A DNA stretch of 14,973 nucleotides, counting the filler, from Acidimicrobiia bacterium (GTDB lineage Bacteria > Actinomycetota > Acidimicrobiia > Spongiisociales > JAHEDJ01), in NCBI GenBank assembly GCA_029210695.1. It is 2 parts of 2 records of this genome, joined end to end, with 100 filler letters (N's around TTAATTAATTAA, not from the genome) between each part and the next. Parts side by side here need not be neighbours in the genome. Positions count along the whole stretch, not along the records: positions 1 to 7,499 come from JARGFH010000098.1; 1 more part is not named here. One strand, 5' to 3'. Position numbers and translations under genes: made by a program. Of this stretch, positions 1-11,988 are shown in pieces. The notes below the pieces were generated by a model. It had not been told where the DNA came from and did not search any database. It worked only from the letters and a program-made list of their open reading frames with translations. Within the stretch, counting starts at the first letter, position 1; the number at the start of each line of letters is the position of its first letter.

Positions 1-861
<861 letters not shown>

Positions 862-1025
862 GACATGGGCCTCGCGGAACCTCGCGATCTCTCGATGAGT
901 GCGCAGCAGGTCACCGAGGTCGCGGACAGGTGCATGGACCGCCAGACCGCCGAGGCGGGTGTGCAGCCTGAACTGGTAAGTCGGCTCGATGCCAAGTGGC
1001 GAGGGGTCAGCAGCCCAAGGGGACC

Positions 1026-1727
1026 TCAGAGGAACGCTATCGGACCTGGGGGCATGCAATATCCCCGTTCCCCTAGAACCGCGACGAAGATGTCGGGATC
1101 CCGCACATAGCGATCGATGTCGCCGGTTGAAGCAAGCGCAACGAACAGGGCACAGGATCGCGCCTGACAGTTCAGCGACCGCTTCGGATTGAACTCGATG
1201 TCGGTGAATCCCTGGAACCCGGACAGCTCGGAGAGCAGGGCAGGCCGCTCGCCCCAGAGCTCGAGCAGCGCTCCGATGTACAGCCAGTCGTAGAACACTG
1301 TTTTGGGTTCGAGCGGCCACGTTCGCCCCTCGTACATAAAGGCGACAAGGGCTTCCGAATCGTATTCGCGTGCCGCCTTCTTTGCCTCGGCCCCGGAGCG
1401 CGCCTCGTAGATCTCAGTATGTTGACCAGACGCGGCAAACACCTTCGAACCTTGGAAAGCCGACTCGAGCGGAATACGCCGATCGAACTCTCGAAAGGGA
1501 ACGTGGAGATTGAAAGCGCTCAATCGTGCCCCGAGAGCACGAGGAGATTTACTGGAGACTTCGAGGAGAGGTTCCCTCCCCAGATGGATGACAGCAGCCC
1601 GGTGCAGCGAGTCGATGTTCTTGCGTTTCTGGACGAGCGCGAATCCTGGATGCCACTCAAACTCGACCATCCGCTCAGCTACAAGAGCTCCCGTCGGGTC
1701 CGGTATGAACACTGGTCGTTTAGCCAC
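1026..1727 (-). CDS. darG: DarT1-associated NADAR-family antitoxin (DarG1/DUF6977-like ADP-ribosyl hydrolase)
   Basis: Family motifs MAKRPVFIP, F.WHPGFA..QK.KNI..LH, LEVSSKS...LG..LSAFNL, ESAFQGSKVF, WPLEPKT.FYDWLY, FTDIEFNPKRSLNCQARSCAL. GTG start at 1727 follows GGAGGTAGGTGA, 4 nt after the darT stop. 233 aa. Confidence 0.85.
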   Translation of the reverse strand: MAKRPVFIPDPTGALVAERMVEFEWHPGFALVQKRKNIDSLHRAAVIHLGREPLLEVSSKSPRALGARLSAFNLHVPFREFDRRIPLESAFQGSKVFAASGQHTEIYEARSGAEAKKAAREYDSEALVAFMYEGRTWPLEPKTVFYDWLYIGALLELWGERPALLSELSGFQGFTDIEFNPKRSLNCQARSCALFVALASTGDIDRYVRDPDIFVAVLGERGYCMPPGPIAFL

Positions 1728-1731
1728 GTTC

Positions 1732-2430
1732 TCACCTACCTCCCCAGAACGATCCGCAGCTAGGGTCGGTCTCGACGCTGGAAGCGATCCTGCCGGCGAG
1801 GGCTCTCGGGTCAAAGAACTCCGGGCAAATCGCGAGACCTAGCTCCGGCACGCTAAGGCCGAACTCACTGAGCTTCCATCTCTCCCGCTTCGCCTGAGCT
1901 TCGTCTCGAACGACCACACACCGGACAAGGTCGAGGGGAATGCCATCAAGCACGAGCACCTCAGCCTGATTGTCGGTGGGACAGGAGGCGAGATGCGTGA
2001 GTCCTCTGCCGATGCGCCCCGTCGGTGTGAAGTTCTCGAACATTGCGTCGAACCCATCCTTACCTTCTGCGATGTACCTACCGTGCTCCGTTGCAGCGTT
2101 GACGGGACAGAACAGTGTATTGCTCCACCAGAGCGGATCGGGCTCGATCAAGAGCACGATCCAGTCCTTGAACAGTGGCTCTCTTGCCTGGACTAACTTG
2201 AGATACCAGGCATTCGGGTATTGCACCGAGCATGACACATGGGTCTTGTGACCGTCCAGCCGCATGTGGTCGTTCGGGTAGTAGATCGCGAGCTCGTCCT
2301 GGTCCAAACGACTGGTAGCGACGATCTCACCCATCTCGACAATGAACGGAAGCGTCATGGAGCGCGTGATATGACACAGGCGAGTGATGCCTCTTGCGTC
2401 CACCTTGCCCTGAATCGGATTCGCTGTCAT
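1732..2430 (-). CDS. darT: DarT (DUF4433) ssDNA ADP-ribosyltransferase toxin, DarT1 type
   Basis: LCHIT, ND..RLDG...HVSCSVQYPN.WY, W.VL.I.P, F.P.NAA, and PTDNQAEVLV...IP with the catalytic Glu in QAE. Lies directly upstream of a NADAR gene. 232 aa. Confidence 0.88.
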   Translation of the reverse strand: MTANPIQGKVDARGITRLCHITRSMTLPFIVEMGEIVATSRLDQDELAIYYPNDHMRLDGHKTHVSCSVQYPNAWYLKLVQAREPLFKDWIVLLIEPDPLWWSNTLFCPVNAATEHGRYIAEGKDGFDAMFENFTPTGRIGRGLTHLASCPTDNQAEVLVLDGIPLDLVRCVVVRDEAQAKRERWKLSEFGLSVPELGLAICPEFFDPRALAGRIASSVETDPSCGSFWGGR

Positions 2431-3806
2431 TGGATAGACCGTTCTTCGAAGAGGCCCGGATCCACGGGAAGCAGTTGAGACTTCGTCCCGACATAGCTGA
2501 TCGCAAGATTGGTTCGGGCCCTGGTAACACCGACATACAGCAGGCGTAGGTCCTCGGCTCGAGCCTCATCGACACCAAGCGCATCCGATGCTTGCGGGTC
2601 TGGGAGATGATCGCTGCTGCAGTGCGCAATGTGCACGCTGTCGAACTCAAGACCCTTCGCTGCATGGAGCGTTCCGTAGTAGATACCGTCTGGCGCGAGG
2701 CCGTTCAGGTTCCTATCGAGCTTCTTGGCTCCTGACGGAAGGATCGATGCGAGGCGCTGCCTGTCTCCAACGGTCCGAGCCAACACGGCCACGTTGCCTT
2801 GGGATGCGAATCTCTCCACATTGGCAGCTATGCACCGGCTCTCCGCATCGACCGTGGCACAGTGAGTGAGAGTGGGAGCAGGTCCGTCCTGGCGTGCTGG
2901 CGTCAGTGGGCGGAGATCATCCACTTCGAAACCGGGAAGCACCGCGATTGCCCCAGCTACTGCCGAGATCTGCTTCGTGTTCCGATAGTTGCCGTCCAGC
3001 TCCCACAGTTTCGAGACGCTGAGCCCTGCCGATCTCCATGACATACGGTGCCCGTAGATCTGCTGTGCATAGTCGGCGAAGACCGTCACGGAACCGTCGT
3101 CAGGAATGATCTGGCTCGCTGCTCGCAGTACCTCCGGCGGGAAGTCTTGGGCTTCGTCTATCACGACATGCTTGTAGGGAAGGCGCGCCTTCCCATCTCT
3201 CAACGCGAGGTGAAGTCGATGCGGCATGTCTTGAAGGTCGTAGTCGTACCCTGCCTCACCCCGAACGCTGAGATACGAGATGTAGATGTCGAACATCGTC
3301 CCGCGATCGGCTCGCATGAGACGGGCGGAAGCTCGGCCAACGCGGTCCGCCTCTACGTAGGCAGCCTTGTCCTCGATGCCATGTCCCGCGATCCATGCGA
3401 ATTCATCGACAAAGAAACGCGTCGGGCGGCCTGCAAGCCGATGGGTCGGATGCGATTGCTTGAAAGCGCTGATCGCCTGCTCCTGCAGTCGCTTCATCGC
3501 CCACGCGTCATAGAGATCAGTGGCCCCCGTGGCCGCGAGAGCGTTGCGCCCGACCGTATGGAGTGTCAGAACGTCCACAGACGGCCCCGCCGGACCGACA
3601 AGTTGCGCCAGGTACTTGGTCAGCGCCTGCGTGTAGGTCACGAGTAGCACGCGCCCCGCATGATCGAGCCCGGAGTCGGCCAGATACCGAGAACGAAGCA
3701 CCGCCACTGTCGACTTACCGCTGCCCGCGGAACCAAGAACTACGTAGTGCCCCTCGGTGGGCAGATACAGCACCTCACGTTGCCGGCCTTTGGGCTTGAT
3801 CTCCAT
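2427..3806 (-). CDS. UvrD/Rep-like superfamily 1 helicase (compact, 459 aa)
   Basis: Walker A GSAGSGKS, Ia VTYT..L, Walker B VIDEAQD, III DYAQQIY, IV NYRNTKQI, V TLHAAKGLEFD, VI LLYVGVTRAR. ATG at 3806 follows GGAG. The stop overlaps the darT start (ATGA). Confidence 0.9.
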   Translation of the reverse strand: MEIKPKGRQREVLYLPTEGHYVVLGSAGSGKSTVAVLRSRYLADSGLDHAGRVLLVTYTQALTKYLAQLVGPAGPSVDVLTLHTVGRNALAATGATDLYDAWAMKRLQEQAISAFKQSHPTHRLAGRPTRFFVDEFAWIAGHGIEDKAAYVEADRVGRASARLMRADRGTMFDIYISYLSVRGEAGYDYDLQDMPHRLHLALRDGKARLPYKHVVIDEAQDFPPEVLRAASQIIPDDGSVTVFADYAQQIYGHRMSWRSAGLSVSKLWELDGNYRNTKQISAVAGAIAVLPGFEVDDLRPLTPARQDGPAPTLTHCATVDAESRCIAANVERFASQGNVAVLARTVGDRQRLASILPSGAKKLDRNLNGLAPDGIYYGTLHAAKGLEFDSVHIAHCSSDHLPDPQASDALGVDEARAEDLRLLYVGVTRARTNLAISYVGTKSQLLPVDPGLFEERSIQ

Positions 3807-3952
3807 CGGACTCCATAGAACGCTCGCATCCAGGTTCGACGCATGGTACAAGCGCCCGTGTCGACTCCTCCTGAGGAAGGGGGAGGCCACGTTCGCGGAC
3901 GAAACCCGGCGTCGCTGCAAGAGAACGTTCTGGTGCACGTGCACAAGCTCGA

Positions 3953-3997
3953 TAACACTCTGGTGAGAGGGTTACTGACACTCTGGTGACAGGGTTC
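3953..3997. promoter_or_regulatory. Two tandem 19-bp repeats, the first within a near-palindrome; candidate operators
   Basis: ACACTCTGGTGAGAGGGTT (3955-3973) and ACACTCTGGTGACAGGGTT (3978-3996) match at 18/19 with a 23-bp period. TAACACTCT-GGTG-AGAGGGTTA (3953-3974) is an inverted repeat with one mismatch. Located in the divergent intergenic region. Confidence 0.6.
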
Positions 3998-4001
3998 GCG
4001 C

Positions 4002-4040
4002 GGATGCTTCCTCTCGTGGACACAAAGAGAGGAGGCTTCC
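4002..4040 (+). promoter_or_regulatory. Hairpin sequestering the Shine-Dalgarno of the sigma-like gene
   Basis: GCTTCCTCTC (4006-4015) pairs with GAGAGGAGGC (4027-4036, one G:U), extended by GGA/TCC after a U-U mismatch, ending at the ATG at 4041. Confidence 0.55.
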
Positions 4041-4790
4041 ATGGGGCCGAGATCGCCGGTGAGTGCGTCGCAGACTGAGTTGCTCCGGCGGCTCGACGCC
4101 GATTGGCGAGTACTCGCCGGATCTCGGCTGATGCGAGATCGCATTCAGTCCTGGGCCGCCGGTGATGAGCGGTTGACGTTCGATGACGGTGACCAGCTTG
4201 TGGCGGCGGCCCAGCGGCGGGATGCTGCGAGTTGGGCGGATCGGGACAAGGTTCTCACCGCTCTCCTTCAACGTGCCACCAACGACGCCATCGCCAGACG
4301 CGCCGCGCTTCAGGTGGTCTTGCCGGGTGTGAAGAGCCTGATCAACGGGATTCGGGGTTGGGATGTCGAGGAGCGGGCCGCCCGGGTCGTGGCGACGGCG
4401 TTGGATGTCATCTCTTGGTGCGCCACCGAGCCGGCGGGGACGCCGCCGAGTTTCCGCATATACACGAACACGAGGCGACGCGTCCTGCGGTCGGCTGTTC
4501 GGGCACGATCTGAGCCGGTGGTGTTCGTCGACGACTACTCGTATCTCGAAGCCAGCGACGACACGCCGGATGGCAAGCCCGAGGCTCAACAGATCGACGA
4601 GTTCGTCGAGTGGGTGCGGCAACGAGCGCGGGTTCGCGACGACGCTGCCCGTCTGGTGGTGATGACCCGGATCGCTGGTGTCTCGGTGGATGAGGTGGCT
4701 GCGGCCCAAGAGGTTGATCCCCAGACGCTTCGTCAGCGCCGTCTGCAAATGGAGCGCCGGGTGCGACAGAGCCCCGTTCTTTCCCGATGA
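4041..4790 (+). CDS. Sigma-70/ECF-like regulatory protein with C-terminal region-4-type HTH
   Basis: Strong SD GAGGAGG. Region-2-like segment (RDKVLTALLQRA..DAIARRAALQVVLPGV) and HTH segment (ARLVVMTRIAGVSVDEVAAAQEVDPQTLRQRRLQMERRVR). First gene of the transfer region. Confidence 0.65.
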   Translation: MGPRSPVSASQTELLRRLDADWRVLAGSRLMRDRIQSWAAGDERLTFDDGDQLVAAAQRRDAASWADRDKVLTALLQRATNDAIARRAALQVVLPGVKSLINGIRGWDVEERAARVVATALDVISWCATEPAGTPPSFRIYTNTRRRVLRSAVRARSEPVVFVDDYSYLEASDDTPDGKPEAQQIDEFVEWVRQRARVRDDAARLVVMTRIAGVSVDEVAAAQEVDPQTLRQRRLQMERRVRQSPVLSR

Positions 4791-4894: not shown

Positions 4895-5200
4895 ATGCAA
4901 GCCCACTGGCCACAGCAGCCCGACGACCGACTCGGTGACCGGGACGTCCAGGCCATGACGGAAGGCCAACTCGACAGCGAGATCCGACTCGGGATGGACG
5001 ACTGGTGTGACTTGCTCGACGACCTGCTGAACACCGGCGGGATGCTTCCGTCCAGGGACTTGGCCGGCCGCGTGGTGAGCTTCTTTGAGGACGGCTATTG
5101 GCGGGCCGAGGACGCCCGGATCGAGGCGCTACGTCGTCAGATGGTCGACCGCGGCCGCCGACGGTGCTGCGTTTCGGGCCGGTCGAGAGGCATTCGATGA
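4895..5200 (+). CDS. Hypothetical protein (101 aa)
   Basis: ATG at 4895 follows GAAGGGAGAG. The stop overlaps the tcpC start (ATGA). Confidence 0.6.
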   Translation: MQAHWPQQPDDRLGDRDVQAMTEGQLDSEIRLGMDDWCDLLDDLLNTGGMLPSRDLAGRVVSFFEDGYWRAEDARIEALRRQMVDRGRRRCCVSGRSRGIR

Positions 5201-6114
5201 CCGTCGACAACCCTCAGGAAGCGCTCCCCCGTGGGAGGTATCGCCGCCGCGAGATGAGTCCGCTGCTGACCATCCGGGCTGTCCAGGTCGTCTTGTGGAT
5301 GCTCGTGATCTCCGGCCCGGTGGCGGCGCTCTTGGTGGCGAACCGGGTGTCGTCGATCGGTGACAGCCTCGATACCCTTGGTGCGTCGACCGCCGTCGAG
5401 GTGCCACCCGACACGTCCGGGGTGGAGGGCTTCGCCGAGTTGTTCATCGCTGCCTACCTCGGTGCAGGCGAGGACACGATCGATGCTCTGGATCCGTTCC
5501 TGGTCGACGTTGCCCTGGACAGCGTCGAGACCGGATCGTGGAGGGCGGTCAGGACGACGAGCCTCGGGGCGCAGGAGGTCTCCCCCGGCTACTACGCCGT
5601 GGTGGTCGCGGCAGAGGTTGTCGCCTCCGACCCCGAGTCTGGTGACCAGCCCGTGGGAGTCCGCTACTTCTCGGTCGGGGTTGCCGAGACGACGACCGGG
5701 TGGGTCGTCGTCGGGCTACCCGCGCTGATCCCACGGCCGGCGAGGGTGGCGGCACCTGAGCTTCTGATCGGACGCTTTGACGGTCTCGACGTTGCGCCGG
5801 GTTTGGAGGAGATGCTGCCCCGTTTCCTCGCTGCGTTCCTGACCGGCGCCGGGGAGCTGACCCGATACGCCTCTCCGTCCTCACCCATCGTTGCGGTGCA
5901 GCCACCGCCGTTCACCAGCGTCGAGGTCCTCCGCAGCGGTCTGGTCGAGACACCGGACGGATCCACCGAGGTCGCAGTCCTGGTTCGCGGCACGGATGCG
6001 GACGGCCGGACCCAGATTCTCGAGTACGCCCTGGTGGTCGAGCAGCGAGATGGCCGCTGGGAGGTGTCCCGACTGCTGCCCGCACCCACCCTCAAGCAAC
6101 CCGAAGCCAACTGA
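5197..6114 (+). CDS. tcpC: Conjugal transfer protein, TcpC/Tn916 Orf13 family (VirB8-like)
   Basis: N-terminal TM helix, then GFAELFIAAYL, YYAVVVAAEV, YFSVGV...W.V.GLPALIP and a second domain beginning FLAAFLTG.GELTRY. ATG at 5197. 305 aa. Confidence 0.8.
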   Translation: MTVDNPQEALPRGRYRRREMSPLLTIRAVQVVLWMLVISGPVAALLVANRVSSIGDSLDTLGASTAVEVPPDTSGVEGFAELFIAAYLGAGEDTIDALDPFLVDVALDSVETGSWRAVRTTSLGAQEVSPGYYAVVVAAEVVASDPESGDQPVGVRYFSVGVAETTTGWVVVGLPALIPRPARVAAPELLIGRFDGLDVAPGLEEMLPRFLAAFLTGAGELTRYASPSSPIVAVQPPPFTSVEVLRSGLVETPDGSTEVAVLVRGTDADGRTQILEYALVVEQRDGRWEVSRLLPAPTLKQPEAN

Positions 6115-6406: not shown

Positions 6407-6829
6407 ATGGACGTCGATGTCTACCACTCGTATACCCAAGCGCTGCGCCATCCGGTCATCATCGGGCACGTCGCCGGTTGGCGGCTGCCGTGGGCCCTGT
6501 CGGCGTCACAACTCGGCGCGGTCGCCGGGATGAGCGGGTTGATGTTGGTAACCCGACCTCTGTGGGCGCATCTCGGTTCGATTGGCAACCTGGGGGTGTT
6601 CACTGTGGTGGTCGCCGGGGTCGGGTGGGCGGTGAGGCATTGGAGGATCGAGGGTCGCTCCCCGTTCCTGGTTGCCGCCGGCGTGGCGATGGTGTTCTTG
6701 TCGTCCGGATGCCGGCGGGGTGTACGCAACGGAGCGCCGGTTTCTCAGGCACGGCCGACTCGCGGAAATCCGGTTGGAACGGTGATCCGGTGCGCATCAG
6801 CGACCCAACGGAGCCGCACCGATGGCTAA
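6407..6829 (+). CDS. TcpE/VirB3-like conjugation membrane protein
   Basis: YT.ALRHP.IIGHVAGWRLPW.LS..QL, two TM segments, then RIEGRSP. Directly precedes and overlaps the VirB4-like gene. Confidence 0.65.
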   Translation: MDVDVYHSYTQALRHPVIIGHVAGWRLPWALSASQLGAVAGMSGLMLVTRPLWAHLGSIGNLGVFTVVVAGVGWAVRHWRIEGRSPFLVAAGVAMVFLSSGCRRGVRNGAPVSQARPTRGNPVGTVIRCASATQRSRTDG

Positions 6830-7499: not shown

Positions 7500-7599
7500 N
7501 NNNNNNNNNNNNNNNNNNNNNNNNNNNNNNNNNNNNNNNNNNNTTAATTAATTAANNNNNNNNNNNNNNNNNNNNNNNNNNNNNNNNNNNNNNNNNNNN
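7500..7599. other. Artificial contig-joining spacer (44 N + TTAATTAATTAA + 44 N)
   Basis: Exactly 100 nt, symmetric, with a six-frame stop linker at 7544-7555. Confidence 0.97.
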
Positions 7600-7764
7600 G
7601 TGCCACGAACCCTGCCACAGCGGGGATCGTCCGGCAGGAGACCAAGTCACCAAATCCGCGACGGACCACTAGAAGAAGGGCCGATTGGTCCCCTGAACGG
7701 TCATCCGGACCCTGTGCTCCGATTAACAGACGTGGCAACGTGGCGGAGTAGTCGGGAGGTCTGG

Positions 7765-8649
7765 TTGCTTTCGCTGGTTGACCTTCACAAGCGGTTTGGC
7801 AATGTAGTGGCGCTGGACGGCGCAGGCTTCGACGTGGCGCCCGGACGGATCGTCGGATTCCTCGGACCGAACGGCGCCGGCAAGACCACGGCGATGCGTT
7901 GCGTGTTTGGCCTCGTCGATCCCGATGCCGGTTCGGTGACCTGGAATGGCACACCCGTCGACCATCGCGACCGCCTCACATTCGGCTACATGCCGGAGGA
8001 ACGAGGGCTTTACCCCAAGATGAAGATCGGGGAGCAACTCGCCTATTTCGGCCGGCTTTCCGGGCTCAGCCGGTCGGATGCCGCCGCCGAAGCGTCCATC
8101 TGGCTCCACCAACTCGGACTCGCCGATCGCTCACTGTCCAAGTTGGAGGAGCTGTCGCACGGCAACCAGCAGCGCGTCCAGCTGGCAGCTTCGCTCGTCC
8201 ACAGGCCAAGACTGGCGGTACTCGATGAGCCATTCGCCGGTCTCGATCCACTCGGAGTCGAGGCAATGGCCGACATCCTGCGCCGGCTCGCCGACTCAGG
8301 CATGGGCGTCGTGTTCTCGAGCCATCAACTCGACCTCGTCGAGGACGTGTGCGAGGACGTCGTCATCATCGACCACGGTCGAGTAATGGTCTCGGGAATC
8401 CTCGAGACACTCAAGAGCCGATCCGAGTTCCTCCACCTCGAAGTGACCGTCAACGGACACGAGTGGAAGCCGCAGAGTGCCGGAGCACAGTTCCTCGGCA
8501 ACGCTCGCGGAAGCAATCGGTACCTGATCGACCGTCAGACCGACCTCGCCCAGCTCCTCGAACAGGCGCAGGCCGACGGAACGGTTACGAAGTTCGCGGT
8601 TGAACCACCCCGGCTTTCCGACATCTTCAGAGAGGCGGTGCGGCGATGA
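7765..8649 (+). CDS. ABC-2 type exporter ATP-binding subunit (NatA-like)
   Basis: Walker A GPNGAGKT, GYMPEERGLYPKM, signature LSHGNQQR, Walker B VLDEPFAGLD, H-loop FSSHQL. TTG start at 7765 follows GGAGG. Confidence 0.93.
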   Translation: MLSLVDLHKRFGNVVALDGAGFDVAPGRIVGFLGPNGAGKTTAMRCVFGLVDPDAGSVTWNGTPVDHRDRLTFGYMPEERGLYPKMKIGEQLAYFGRLSGLSRSDAAAEASIWLHQLGLADRSLSKLEELSHGNQQRVQLAASLVHRPRLAVLDEPFAGLDPLGVEAMADILRRLADSGMGVVFSSHQLDLVEDVCEDVVIIDHGRVMVSGILETLKSRSEFLHLEVTVNGHEWKPQSAGAQFLGNARGSNRYLIDRQTDLAQLLEQAQADGTVTKFAVEPPRLSDIFREAVRR

Positions 8650-9881: not shown

Positions 9882-10898
9882 GTGATGGCAGGGGTACGAT
9901 CGAGGATCACCGGAGTCGGCGGTTTCGTCCCCCCCAGGGTCGTGACCAACGAGGACCTGGCGCAGTTGATGGATACATCGAACGAGTGGATCGTCGAGCG
10001 CACCGGCATCCATCAACGCCACTGGGTTGATCCCGAGACCACCACATCCGATTTGGCGCTCGAAGCCGCCAACGCTGCGCTTGCGTCGGCCGGAGTCGCC
10101 AACGAGGACGTCGACATGTTGATCGTTGCGACGCTCAGCTCCGACCATTTCTTCCCGGGCACCGCCTGTTTCCTCCAGACGAAGATGGGGATCAGCGAGA
10201 TTCCGGCCCTGGACATCCGCCAGCAGTGCACCGGGTTCGTCTTCGCAGCATCGATCGCCGACCAGTTCATCCGGACCGGCATGTACCGCACGGTGCTGGT
10301 GATCGGTGCAGAGATCCACTCGAAAGGTCTCGATATCAGCGACGAAGGACGAGACGTCACCGTCCTGTTCGGGGACGGCGCAGGCGCCGTCGTCGTGGAA
10401 GCCACGGAGGCCGGAACTTCGAACGATCCGCAGATCTTCTCCACCCATCTGCATGCCGATGGCACCGGCGCCAAGGACCTGTGGGTCCCTTCTCCCGGGA
10501 TGGCCTTTCCGGATGGGCTCGTGACCCACGCCCACCTCGACCGCGGCGACCAGTACCCACAGATGAACGGGAGATCCGTCTACGTGAACGCAGTGAAGCG
10601 GATGTCGGAAGGCATAGGAGAAACCCTGACGGCCAACAAAGTGACGATCGATGACGTCGACCTGTTCTTCTTCCACCAGGCAAACCTGCGGATCAACGAG
10701 GCAGTCGCCCAGCGGCTCGGGATCCCGACCGAAAAGGTCTACAACACGATCCATAAATACGGCAACACCACCGCCGCCACGATTCCACTCGGTATGCGAG
10801 ACGCCGTCGAAGACGGCACGCTCCAACCCGGCATGCTGGTGGCGGTCGCCGCCTTCGGAGGCGGCTTCACCTGGGGTTCGATGCTGCTCCGCTGGTAG
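9882..10898 (+). CDS. fabH: 3-oxoacyl-ACP synthase III (KAS III)
   Basis: DTSNEWI.ERTGI..R, catalytic triad Cys (QQCTGF), His (FHQAN), Asn (YGNTTAA), LFGDGAGA, AFGGGFTWG. SD AGGAGG. The start could be GTG 9882 or ATG 9885. Confidence 0.93.
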   Translation: MMAGVRSRITGVGGFVPPRVVTNEDLAQLMDTSNEWIVERTGIHQRHWVDPETTTSDLALEAANAALASAGVANEDVDMLIVATLSSDHFFPGTACFLQTKMGISEIPALDIRQQCTGFVFAASIADQFIRTGMYRTVLVIGAEIHSKGLDISDEGRDVTVLFGDGAGAVVVEATEAGTSNDPQIFSTHLHADGTGAKDLWVPSPGMAFPDGLVTHAHLDRGDQYPQMNGRSVYVNAVKRMSEGIGETLTANKVTIDDVDLFFFHQANLRINEAVAQRLGIPTEKVYNTIHKYGNTTAATIPLGMRDAVEDGTLQPGMLVAVAAFGGGFTWGSMLLRW

Positions 10899-10901
10899 GC
10901 G

Positions 10902-11645
10902 TCAAACTAGGCCCCCGCCGTGGCGACCGGCGCCCTTCTCAAACCGCTCCGAGCCCTCGGCGGCGAGGTCGAGAACGCCCAGGCCGTGCAGGCGTTCGAT
11001 TTCCAGACCTTCTGCGAGCGGCCGCCCCAGCCCTTCGAGCATCGCCATCCGGTCGGAGCGAACCGTCGGCTGGGGAAACGCCGCAATGGTGGCGGCCAAC
11101 TCGAGCGCCGCCGCCACCGCAGTGCCGTCCGGGACCACCCGGTCGGCCAGTCCGATGCGCAGAGCTTCGCCGGCATCTACCGGCCTACCGGTCAGCACCA
11201 GGTCCATCGCCCGCGACAACCCGACCAGACGCGGCAACCGCTGGGTACCGCCATCCACCAGCGGCACCCCGAAGCGCCGCTCGAAGCACCCGAAGACCGC
11301 CCCCTCCCCCGCGACCCGCAGATCGCACCAGAGGGCCATTTCGAGGCCGCCCGCCACGCAGTATCCCTCGACCGCCGCAATCGTCGGCTTCGAGACGGTC
11401 ATTCTCGTGAACCCGAGGAACCCCTCGGGACGGTCGACGAGGTCGAAGTCTTTGAGGTCGGCGCCGGATGAGAACACACCCCCGGCGCCGGTGAGAATGC
11501 CCAGGCACGCCTCCTCATCGGAGTCGAATCGAAGCCAAGCGTCACCCAGCAACTCGGCCGTCTCCAGGTTGATGGCGTTGCGCCGATCGGGTCGCTCGAT
11601 CGAAATCAGTGCCACGTTTCCTCGTGACTCATAGCGAACCGGCAT
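10902..11645 (-). CDS. Enoyl-CoA hydratase/isomerase (crotonase family)
   Basis: I.RPDRRNAIN, FSSGADLK, KPTIAAVEGYCVAGGLEMALWCDLRVA, ERRFGVPLVDGGTQRLPRLVG. ATG at 11645 follows AGGAGG. Confidence 0.92.
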   Translation of the reverse strand: MPVRYESRGNVALISIERPDRRNAINLETAELLGDAWLRFDSDEEACLGILTGAGGVFSSGADLKDFDLVDRPEGFLGFTRMTVSKPTIAAVEGYCVAGGLEMALWCDLRVAGEGAVFGCFERRFGVPLVDGGTQRLPRLVGLSRAMDLVLTGRPVDAGEALRIGLADRVVPDGTAVAAALELAATIAAFPQPTVRSDRMAMLEGLGRPLAEGLEIERLHGLGVLDLAAEGSERFEKGAGRHGGGLV

Positions 11646-11988
11646 CGAAACCTCCTGTGCCTGCCATCCTGCCACGGTCCCATCCCCACCGACGGAAATC
11701 CCCGGGCATCGATCCGGTGATTTCCTCGTGTCTTCAGGGGGGCTTCGGAGCGCCCCTGAGGTGGGGATGCCAAGCCGCCAGATAGGTGGCATCCACCGAT
11801 AGTGCCGTGCCTGCCATTGGGATACGGTCGACCTTTGACGACTCAACAATCAAACCCACCAAAAACGATTGCCCGCGGATCGCGCCGGCGCGATGCTGTC
11901 TATAGGCCCGTTCAACGGGCGGAAGCAACGAGGTGGGGGCACAGACGTGCCTAGCTCCGCCCGGGGAACCGGTCGGAAGGAGGGCGTG

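Follow-up and report, generated by a model that had tools for sequence, protein, structure and literature searches.

The window, the whole stretch of 14,973 nucleotides of Acidimicrobiia DNA that was analysed, carries three closely packed genes on the minus strand. The first, a darH-like gene (ATG 3806 to stop 2427), encodes a UvrD-like SF1A helicase of 459 aa that appears to be devoid of the 2B domain. It is followed by darT (ATG 2430 to stop 1732), which encodes a DNA ADP-ribosyltransferase toxin of 232 aa belonging to a helicase-linked lineage, and by a gene for a NADAR antitoxin of the DarG1 type (GTG 1727 to stop 1026, 233 aa). The ATG of darT overlaps the TGA of the helicase gene as ATGA at 2427–2430, and the GTG of the NADAR gene starts 4 nt past the DarT stop. 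Codon-position GC agrees with all three reading frames. An upstream GTG start for the helicase at 3944 was disfavoured, as family alignment A1 begins at ATG 3806; a TTG start for NADAR at 1814 was rejected, as the family alignments begin at 1727, and the N-terminus of the protein aligns with the G. lovleyi NADAR from residue 2 onward. The three-gene helicase-darT-NADAR operon described in the initial annotation is thus real, its coordinates, overlap, short gap and protein families all being borne out, the last by Pfam profiles for each of the three products.

The intergenic region upstream (3807–4040) is common to the operon and a divergent gene at 4041–4790. It contains a tandem 19-nt direct repeat (3955–3973 and 3978–3996; repeat family D4, 95% identity), which is a possible operator. 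A consensus scan of positions 1–4200, of little informative value in a high-GC genome, revealed no sigma-70-like promoter. One terminator-like site was found in the same interval, within the NADAR gene, and this count is below that in shuffled sequences.

The helicase matches the Pfam families UvrD-helicase (1.5e-14) and UvrD_C (3.7e-19). Its motifs include Walker A GSAGSGKS (K31), Walker B DEAQD (D217/E218), Q248/Q249, R275, G385 and R429; Walker A, Walker B and motifs III–VI are invariant among the 30 family members of alignment A1. The family is tight, with members of ~460 aa. Among 8000 sequences scored, 2797 matched at E≤1e-3, and the best 120 matches are 42–82% identical. UvrD, PcrA and Rep were the best fold matches of the AlphaFold model (pLDDT 82.7), with E 1e-19, TMq 0.65 and TMt 0.49, and ~200 target residues were left unaligned. 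Motif IV (YRN, 274–276) and motif V (379–389) are just ~100 residues apart; the helical 1B insert (~101–203) is present in the model and the 2A insert is absent. The model, rather than residue-level superposition, thus assigns 2B as the missing domain. With PADLOC v2 models the helicase scored on C3a187 (1.3e-23) and GajB (7.4e-19), in keeping with a likeness to GajB of Gabija, to NERD+UvrD candidates and to BREX-embedded UvrD. Gabija was rejected, as the GajB models match the helicase core only and no GajA/TOPRIM gene is present among the neighbours, and a NERD-UvrD system was rejected as no NERD partner lies nearby. A search of phage genomes with the helicase returned two matches only, at 22% identity, in Vibrio phages.

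The second protein matches the DarT family PF14487 (6e-16), and its sole match in the PDB is DarT1 of E. coli C7 (8BAQ, 2e-17). Q155-A156-E157 aligns at the position of the catalytic E152 of the C7 enzyme, and H20, R57, D59, S68, N111 and E157 align with C7 H17, R52, D54, S63, N104 and E152. With H20, R57, D59, N111 and E157 conserved, the active site is intact. In C7 DarT1, N104 coordinates guanine and M71 is essential (PMC11543638). The equivalent of the former, N111, is retained in the window DarT, and Y76 stands where the C7 enzyme has M71. Given the substitution of this essential residue, guanine specificity of the window DarT is not assured.

NADAR of the window matches the NADAR-DarT1 profile PF22397 over 211 of its 212 positions (2.8e-75) and the G. 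lovleyi NADAR 8BAT at 2.8e-49. The motifs E88-x6-K95 and D176-x-E178 are identical to those of 8BAT in the alignment and, judged by spacing, are probably equivalent to E88/K95/D171/E173 of the C7 protein. By sequence this is an ordinary DarT1-associated NADAR. No match to it was found in the phage genomes searched.

The gene neighbourhoods of relatives were compared. Helicase, DarT and an ADP-ribosylglycohydrolase (ARH) occur in this order at each of the six loci inspected at which the helicase matches at family level, spread over four phyla: Rhizobium (L001), Oscillospiraceae (L002), Streptomyces (L081), Ralstonia (L082), Rhodococcus (L083) and S. tsukubensis (L084). The 4-nt helicase/darT overlap of the window recurs at each of the six, and the arrangement is therefore not due to chance. 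A conserved, translationally coupled unit with a dedicated helicase, as first proposed, is supported in that all close relatives inspected have a member of the helicase family immediately ahead of darT. In a contig profile search with the helicase alignment (two patterns, one of them a generic UvrD motif; 80 loci considered), only L001 (1e-95) and L002 (6e-71) among the 80 loci listed belong to the helicase family. The contig of L003, 3.6 kb long and coding for a 533-aa relative, leaves no space downstream, and the other 77 were left out.

Among plasmids, 33 records matched the helicase at E≤1e-20, and darT adjoins it in seven (H1–H6 and H17). Inspection of seven among the remaining 26 (H7, H8, H12, H22, H23, H24 and H29) showed no adjacent darT; plasmid helicases at 26–31% identity sit in other systems, with no darT adjoining in the seven inspected. 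The link to darT is therefore specific to the ~460-aa helicase family. A NADAR homologue is present in 29 plasmid records, and the helicase is adjacent to it in none of them; one of the 29 also matches the helicase, 7 kb away. The four plasmid NADAR loci that were inspected are all two-gene darT-NADAR loci. Matches to helicase, DarT and NADAR share longest contigs of equal size (3334, 11122 and 15727, matched by eye), as do matches to DarT and NADAR (2824 and 2675, also by eye). Synteny read from these equal-sized contigs suggests that the helicase-darT-NADAR operon is common to three to five close metagenomic relatives. The arrangement is a rare variant.

A system of helicase, DarT and antitoxin has already been characterised and named DarHTG (Liu-DS3; NAR 2026, PMC13069673). 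It comprises a UvrD-like helicase, DarH, that has no 2B domain, together with DarT and DarG3, an antitoxin resembling ADP-ribosylglycohydrolases. Mutants in the helicase ATP-binding residues and in the DarT active site served to validate it against T4 and T7 in E. coli; defence, which also needs the DarT active site, was lost when the helicase ATP-binding residues were mutated. The statement in the initial annotation that no characterised DarTG system with a coupled helicase was known does not hold in view of this description. The presumed novelty of the architecture does not hold in full either, since the helicase-DarT core is part of a named system, which the initial annotation itself had given as grounds for refutation. 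The window operon resembles DarHTG in gene order and in a UvrD-like helicase seemingly without 2B, and both its helicase and its DarT have homologues in the helicase-DarT-ARH operons, the helicase at 35–41% identity. The difference lies in the third gene, which encodes not an ARH-like DarG3 (an ARH fold of ~550–600 aa) but the much shorter NADAR of PF22397. A tblastn search of the window with six ARH proteins gave no credible ARH remnant; the best match (E 0.004) was on the wrong strand inside darT. The window helicase was compared with the characterised E. coli DarH by architecture and description only, and on these it appears homologous; E. coli genomes searched by blastn with the operon of L002 gave no match.

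Other ADP-ribosylating systems share some of these features. DarTG systems are toxin-antitoxin pairs; DarT1 modifies guanine at N2 and NADAR reverses that modification (Mol Cell 2023, PMC11543638). DarTG1 has an antitoxin of the same family as that of the window, and the window DarT active site resembles that of DarT1, the guanine-coordinating Asn included. However, DarTG1 consists of two genes and no helicase at the inspected plasmid loci, whereas the window has three coupled genes, and the window DarT falls in a separate clade of a midpoint-rooted tree. DarTG2, the pair of DarT2 and the macrodomain DarG, is alike in having a single-stranded DNA ADP-ribosyltransferase toxin of the same superfamily together with an enzymatic antitoxin. 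It differs in that Pfam detected no macrodomain in the window, a search of solved structures gave no match to DarT2 at E≤1, and the base-coordinating residue is Asn in the window DarT but His in DarT2.

The locus is probably a toxin-antitoxin/anti-phage module of the DarHTG family, carried as cargo by an integrative conjugative element, in which DarG3 has been replaced by NADAR and the helicase serves as a motor for DarT. DarT would be the effector, ADP-ribosylating bases in single-stranded DNA, with guanine N2 the likely target by analogy with DarT1. NADAR would act as an enzymatic antitoxin that strips ADP-ribose off host DNA in uninfected cells. The start/stop overlap would allow the DarH-type helicase to be made in fixed proportion with DarT, and by analogy with E. 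coli DarHTG it may be needed for defence. Driven by ATP, it is proposed to load as a motor onto intermediates of phage replication or recombination, where it would expose or track single-stranded DNA for DarT. The base specificity of DarT, the precise role of the helicase and defence by the window operon itself we infer.

The helicase could alternatively belong to the antitoxin or repair side: instead of sensing phage or supplying single-stranded DNA to DarT, it would limit self-toxicity or assist in the clearance or bypass of ADP-ribosylated DNA. UvrD-type helicases have a role in excision repair. In ietHAS the helicase is antitoxin-like and an ietH mutant is cytotoxic, as stated in the DarHTG report (PMC13069673). 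The ATP-binding mutant of DarHTG, however, lost defence, and no toxicity is reported in the available part of that paper. Translational coupling in the window is to the toxin gene and not to the antitoxin gene, and helicase and DarT remain together where the antitoxin differs. A role on the antitoxin side is unlikely.

That a DarTG1 system captured a helicase independently, DarT and NADAR being the old pair and the helicase the newcomer, agrees with the typical DarT1-associated NADAR, with a DarT1 as the only solved structure matching the window DarT, and with the retained Asn. The ancestry of DarT and the helicase argues against it. The window DarT is 40–47% identical to helicase/ARH-linked DarTs and 25–28% to two-gene DarT1s; among plasmids its best matches are helicase-linked DarTs (1e-44), the NADAR-linked DarT1s reaching only 4e-13 to 2e-6. 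In a midpoint-rooted tree in which three two-gene DarT1s were kept, it groups with the helicase-linked DarTs, apart from the two-gene DarT1s, with split support of 99/95. Y76 is the residue of the helicase lineage and M that of DarT1, and the helicase is related to those of the ARH operons, with the same overlap. The helicase and DarT thus probably belong to the DarHTG lineage, with NADAR as the newcomer. The earlier reading of the locus as a tripartite DarTG1 variant is accordingly turned round, and independent capture of a helicase by a DarTG1 is highly improbable.

As the helicase family occurs with ARH at all six loci, DarT belongs with helicase-linked DarTs and NADAR is of the ordinary DarT1 type, a DarHTG-lineage system in which ARH was replaced by NADAR accounts for the operon. 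In a small clade, the ARH-fold DarG3 that usually accompanies this helicase and DarT would have given way to a NADAR taken over from a DarTG1 system of two genes. That the swap ran from ARH to NADAR is likely but falls short of proof, given the midpoint rooting of the DarT tree and the long branch of one outlier linked to ARH (L084).

Homologues of the conjugation genes tcpC and tcpE lie near the operon, which is ~1 kb or less from the element end. A tRNA-like stretch, a tRNA remnant, was scored by Rfam, and ARAGORN found no tRNA. The operon is carried as cargo close to the end of an integrative conjugative element. Relatives are found on plasmids, some beside other toxin-antitoxin pairs, and in defence contexts such as BREX. 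It is highly improbable that the operon mainly serves the conjugative element for addiction or stability and gives no meaningful phage defence: the position beside Tcp-type genes, the toxin-antitoxin nature of DarTG systems (PMC11543638) and the plasmid relatives would suit such a role, but DarHTG (PMC13069673) and DarTG1 (PMC11543638) both defend against phages experimentally, some relatives sit among defence genes, and the two roles are not mutually exclusive.

With the helicase-DarT core already published, the locus reveals no novel type of defence. It is of value for comparison, in that the antitoxin of DarHTG appears exchangeable for the NADAR of DarTG1 with the coupling of helicase and toxin preserved. 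NADARs reverse guanine-N2 ADP-ribosylation, and the guanine-coordinating Asn is retained in the window DarT; on that basis the swap predicts guanine specificity for the DarTs of DarHTG, the guanine modification being undone by an ARH-fold enzyme. It is a tentative proposal, held with somewhat less than even confidence, that ARH (DarG3) and NADAR, unrelated hydrolase folds, can stand in for each other as antitoxins of a single DarT lineage with a coupled helicase, that the DarTs of DarHTG act specifically on guanine and that DarG3 proteins are DNA guanine-ADP-ribose hydrolases. If true, the ARH-fold DarG3 would form a second class of such hydrolases, one not recognised so far, and the window clade would be a natural experiment with the helicase-DarT pair as a stable core and the antitoxin as a replaceable cassette. 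Annotation models for two-gene DarTG systems would probably miss or mislabel the operon (PADLOC v2 models gave only a weak DarT match, 7.5e-5, and none for NADAR). The 233-aa NADAR may offer a minimal antitoxin for dissecting the role of the helicase.

Three intact, tightly packed genes lie on the minus strand at 3806-1026. The helicase gene runs from an ATG at 3806 to a TGA at 2427 (459 aa; the start fits a 30-member helicase alignment), darT from an ATG at 2430 to a TGA at 1732 (232 aa; residue 6 is the first to align with E. coli C7 DarT1) and the NADAR gene from a GTG at 1727 to a TGA at 1026 (233 aa; alignment with the G. lovleyi NADAR begins at residue 2). The helicase stop and the darT start share the bases ATGA, four bases separate the darT stop from the NADAR gene, and all three reading frames agree with codon-position GC. 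Pfam HMMs assign the products to UvrD-type helicase, DarT and NADAR-DarT1. The helicase-darT-NADAR arrangement and the family assignments of the initial annotation were confirmed.

The helicase had been proposed as a dedicated third component without known precedent. Synteny with darT in the family loci bears out its dedication, but a precedent exists. The helicase-coupled system DarHTG, as described in the accessible part of PMC13069673 (NAR 2026), combines the helicase with DarT and the antitoxin DarG3, which is similar to ADP-ribosylglycohydrolases (ARH); by that account, <0.5% of E. coli genomes carry the system, and it is commonest in Thermodesulfobacteriota and Bacteroidota. DarT1-NADAR is treated as a two-gene system in the accessible text of PMC11543638 and PMC11125620, and a coupled helicase is not mentioned for it in the accessible text of these two, PMC9503650 or PMC12945103. 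No description of a helicase-DarT-NADAR operon was found in the literature searched; subscription papers and tables S4-S6 of PMC13069673 could hold one. Whereas DarHTG has the ARH-like DarG3, a DarG1-type NADAR takes its place in the window, and the locus is a variant of the DarHTG kind. It is modestly interesting, mainly for a testable prediction on DarHTG chemistry.

The genomic neighbours of helicase relatives were examined in two collections. A genome scan with the helicase alignment was dominated by the generic UvrD motif; among the 80 loci in the matches listed, only those of Rhizobium paknamense (L001) and an Oscillospiraceae MAG (L002) were family members. In both, the helicase is followed by DarT and then by a 544-578-aa ARH protein (PF03747). 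In the plasmid collection, 33 records had a helicase match at E<=1e-20, and darT lies directly downstream in seven: Streptomyces sp. NBC_01220, Shinella, three Ralstonia, Rhodococcus sp. WAY2 and S. tsukubensis. The third gene is an ARH in all four records read (L081-L084: Streptomyces, one Ralstonia, Rhodococcus and S. tsukubensis); the '600-aa cytosolic protein' of Ralstonia is 40% identical to the Rhizobium ARH. The 4-base overlap of helicase stop and darT start is present in all six family loci, as in the window. The expectation that helicase homologues adjoin darT therefore held at all inspected family-level loci but not among more distant helicases: in seven inspected of the other 26 plasmid records (all 26-31% identity), darT was never beside the helicase, and these loci carry larger helicases in other defence-like settings.

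Some further arrangements were seen. The ARH protein of L001 has a glyoxalase-like domain at its C-terminus, and a DUF6119 protein (10175-11779 of that locus, 1.1e-130) follows the operon. An Azospirillum ramasamyi plasmid (L090) has a different helicase-DarT pairing, with, in order, a DUF1998 protein, a NERD/DEAD-box helicase and DarT, and no hydrolase between DarT and a Tn3 transposase. In a BREX island of a Nostoc sp. C052 plasmid (L089), the gene order is AAA protein, DarT fusion (531 aa), ARH, pglZ.

The window helicase matches UvrD-helicase (1.5e-14) and UvrD_C (3.7e-19) in Pfam. NCBIfam gave only sub-threshold matches for it and for DarT, and PADLOC v2 gave helicase-core matches (NERD+UvrD candidate, 1.3e-23; GajB, 7.4e-19). 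Its family is sharply defined, at ~460-465 aa, and spans many phyla: at least 2797 of 8000 candidates scored matched at E<=1e-3, and the best 120 matches show 42-82% identity, with 97-100% of the query aligned. The window helicase retains Walker A (K31) and Walker B (DEAQD, 217-221) as well as the SF1 motifs after them, none of which varies in 30 family members. In the AlphaFold model (mean pLDDT 82.7, pTM 0.79), the first RecA-like domain carries a helical insert (~101-203) and the second lacks any large one. In Foldseek, UvrD, PcrA and Rep rank first (E ~1e-19; TM 0.65 by query, 0.49 by target), with ~660 alignment columns for 459 residues. The protein is thus a UvrD-like core minus a ~200-residue domain, which fits absence of 2B. 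No exonuclease domain was seen in the Pfam search of this protein. The NCBI pipeline labels many 2B-less UvrD-like helicases '3'-5' exonuclease' (L081, L084, the plasmid loci L094 and L095, and other RefSeq plasmid records).

The window DarT matches PF14487 (6e-16) and, weakly, PADLOC v2 (7.5e-5). In tblastn against plasmids it is closest to helicase-linked DarTs (Ralstonia, 44.7% at 1e-44; Shinella, 42.7% at 2e-44), while plasmid DarTs adjoining NADAR genes score only 4e-13 to 2e-6. A maximum likelihood tree was built from 38 sequences, with a midpoint root only and one Xanthomonas sequence dropped (a short, misaligned CDS). With this rooting, the window DarT and all helicase-linked DarTs are split by a branch supported at 99/95 from five other DarTs, three of them the two-gene DarT1s, and the window DarT falls within an 11-member clade (98/99). 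One ARH-linked sequence sits on a long branch.

Among solved structures, only C7 DarT1 matches the window DarT (2e-17), and DarT2 gave no match at E<=1. The conserved residues H20, N53/D54, R57, D59, S68, N111 and E157 correspond to H17, N48/D49, R52, D54, S63, N104 and E152 of C7, of which N104 is the guanine-coordinating Asn in the accessible text of PMC11543638. The same text gives Met71 as essential in DarT1; the window DarT differs in having Tyr76 at the equivalent position. Tyr/Phe is typical of helicase-linked DarTs there, and Met of two-gene DarT1s.

The NADAR is the odd part of the operon. It matches the Pfam family NADAR-DarT1 (PF22397, 2.8e-75) over 211 of 212 profile positions and the G. 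lovleyi NADAR at 2.8e-49; PADLOC v2 gave nothing for it. NADARs on 29 plasmid records are 37-48% identical to it, and the four inspected are all plain darT-NADAR pairs without a helicase. One of the 29 is also in the helicase list, where a 673-aa BREX-embedded helicase lies 7 kb off. No ARH remnant was detectable in the window. A BREX island on a Deinococcus sp. NW-56 plasmid (L092) contains, in this order, brxC, a UvrD helicase, a methylase, HNH, a 456-aa DarT fusion, IS3, NADAR, an HsdR-N gene and pglZ.

Relatives in the protein databases were paired by eye on the listed size of the longest source sequence. The closest form a small group: the same sizes (3334, 11122, 15727) recur for helicases P0004-P0006 (82%, 72% and 65% identical to the window helicase), DarTs P0244/P0246/P0249 and NADARs P0126/P0128/P0129. 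Sizes 2824 and 2675 are common to DarT and NADAR matches, again by eye, and the DarT/NADAR pair P0307/P0213 (size 2248) may be a further case. Beyond the close group, 10 of 109 more distant listed DarTs share a size with one of 117 more distant listed helicases; by eye, none of the 119 listed NADARs does.

The evidence best supports a conserved functional core of helicase and DarT, accompanied by an exchangeable hydrolase as antitoxin. The toxin DarT would modify single-stranded DNA with ADP-ribose, probably at guanine N2, since it retains the Asn typical of DarT1 and is paired with a NADAR, and enzymes of this class have been shown to reverse such a linkage. NADAR would keep host DNA clean until infection. 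Helicase ATPase is needed for defence in the relative DarHTG, according to the accessible part of PMC13069673. The main alternative is that the helicase limits self-damage. We favour a helicase that would generate substrate or target DarT at phage replication intermediates, since the helicase and toxin genes are coupled and remain together when the antitoxin is exchanged.

Downstream of the operon, a minus-strand tRNA-like stretch lies at 24-116 (Rfam RF00005, 37.3 bits), where ARAGORN called no tRNA. Its 3' part reads as a CAT anticodon loop, T-arm and acceptor end, and its 5' part does not; this would fit a copy of the attachment site that remained after the mobile element integrated. Between it and the NADAR gene, a minus-strand frame at 118-861 corresponds to no more than the C-terminal ~215 residues (~655-873) of proteins of ~870-883 aa (best match 1.2e-40, 44% identity; among 1.84 billion representatives, 15 matches at E<=1e-3), two of four long matches having an N-terminal PHP domain. 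This gene appears truncated, and the cassette occupies the place of its 5' two-thirds. With the conjugation genes on the other side, these features place the cassette in a rearranged spot at a mobile-element edge. On the Streptomyces plasmid, a PHP-domain gene precedes the operon.

On the other side, the plus-strand gene at 4041-4790 has a weak ECF-sigma/HTH-like match (8.2e-4, under the Pfam cut-off). Conjugative-transposon proteins are encoded next on the same strand, TcpC-like (5098-6114; 4.4e-11) and TcpE-like (6407-6829; 3.3e-5, also under the cut-off). Housekeeping-type genes (ABC transporter, FabH, enoyl-CoA hydratase and others) follow. GC falls to 0.51 at 7501-8000, which may mark a boundary. 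Where the helicase gene and the gene at 4041-4790 diverge, the intergenic region holds a tandem 19-nt direct repeat (3955-3973 and 3978-3996; 95% identity, 4-nt spacer), possibly an operator.
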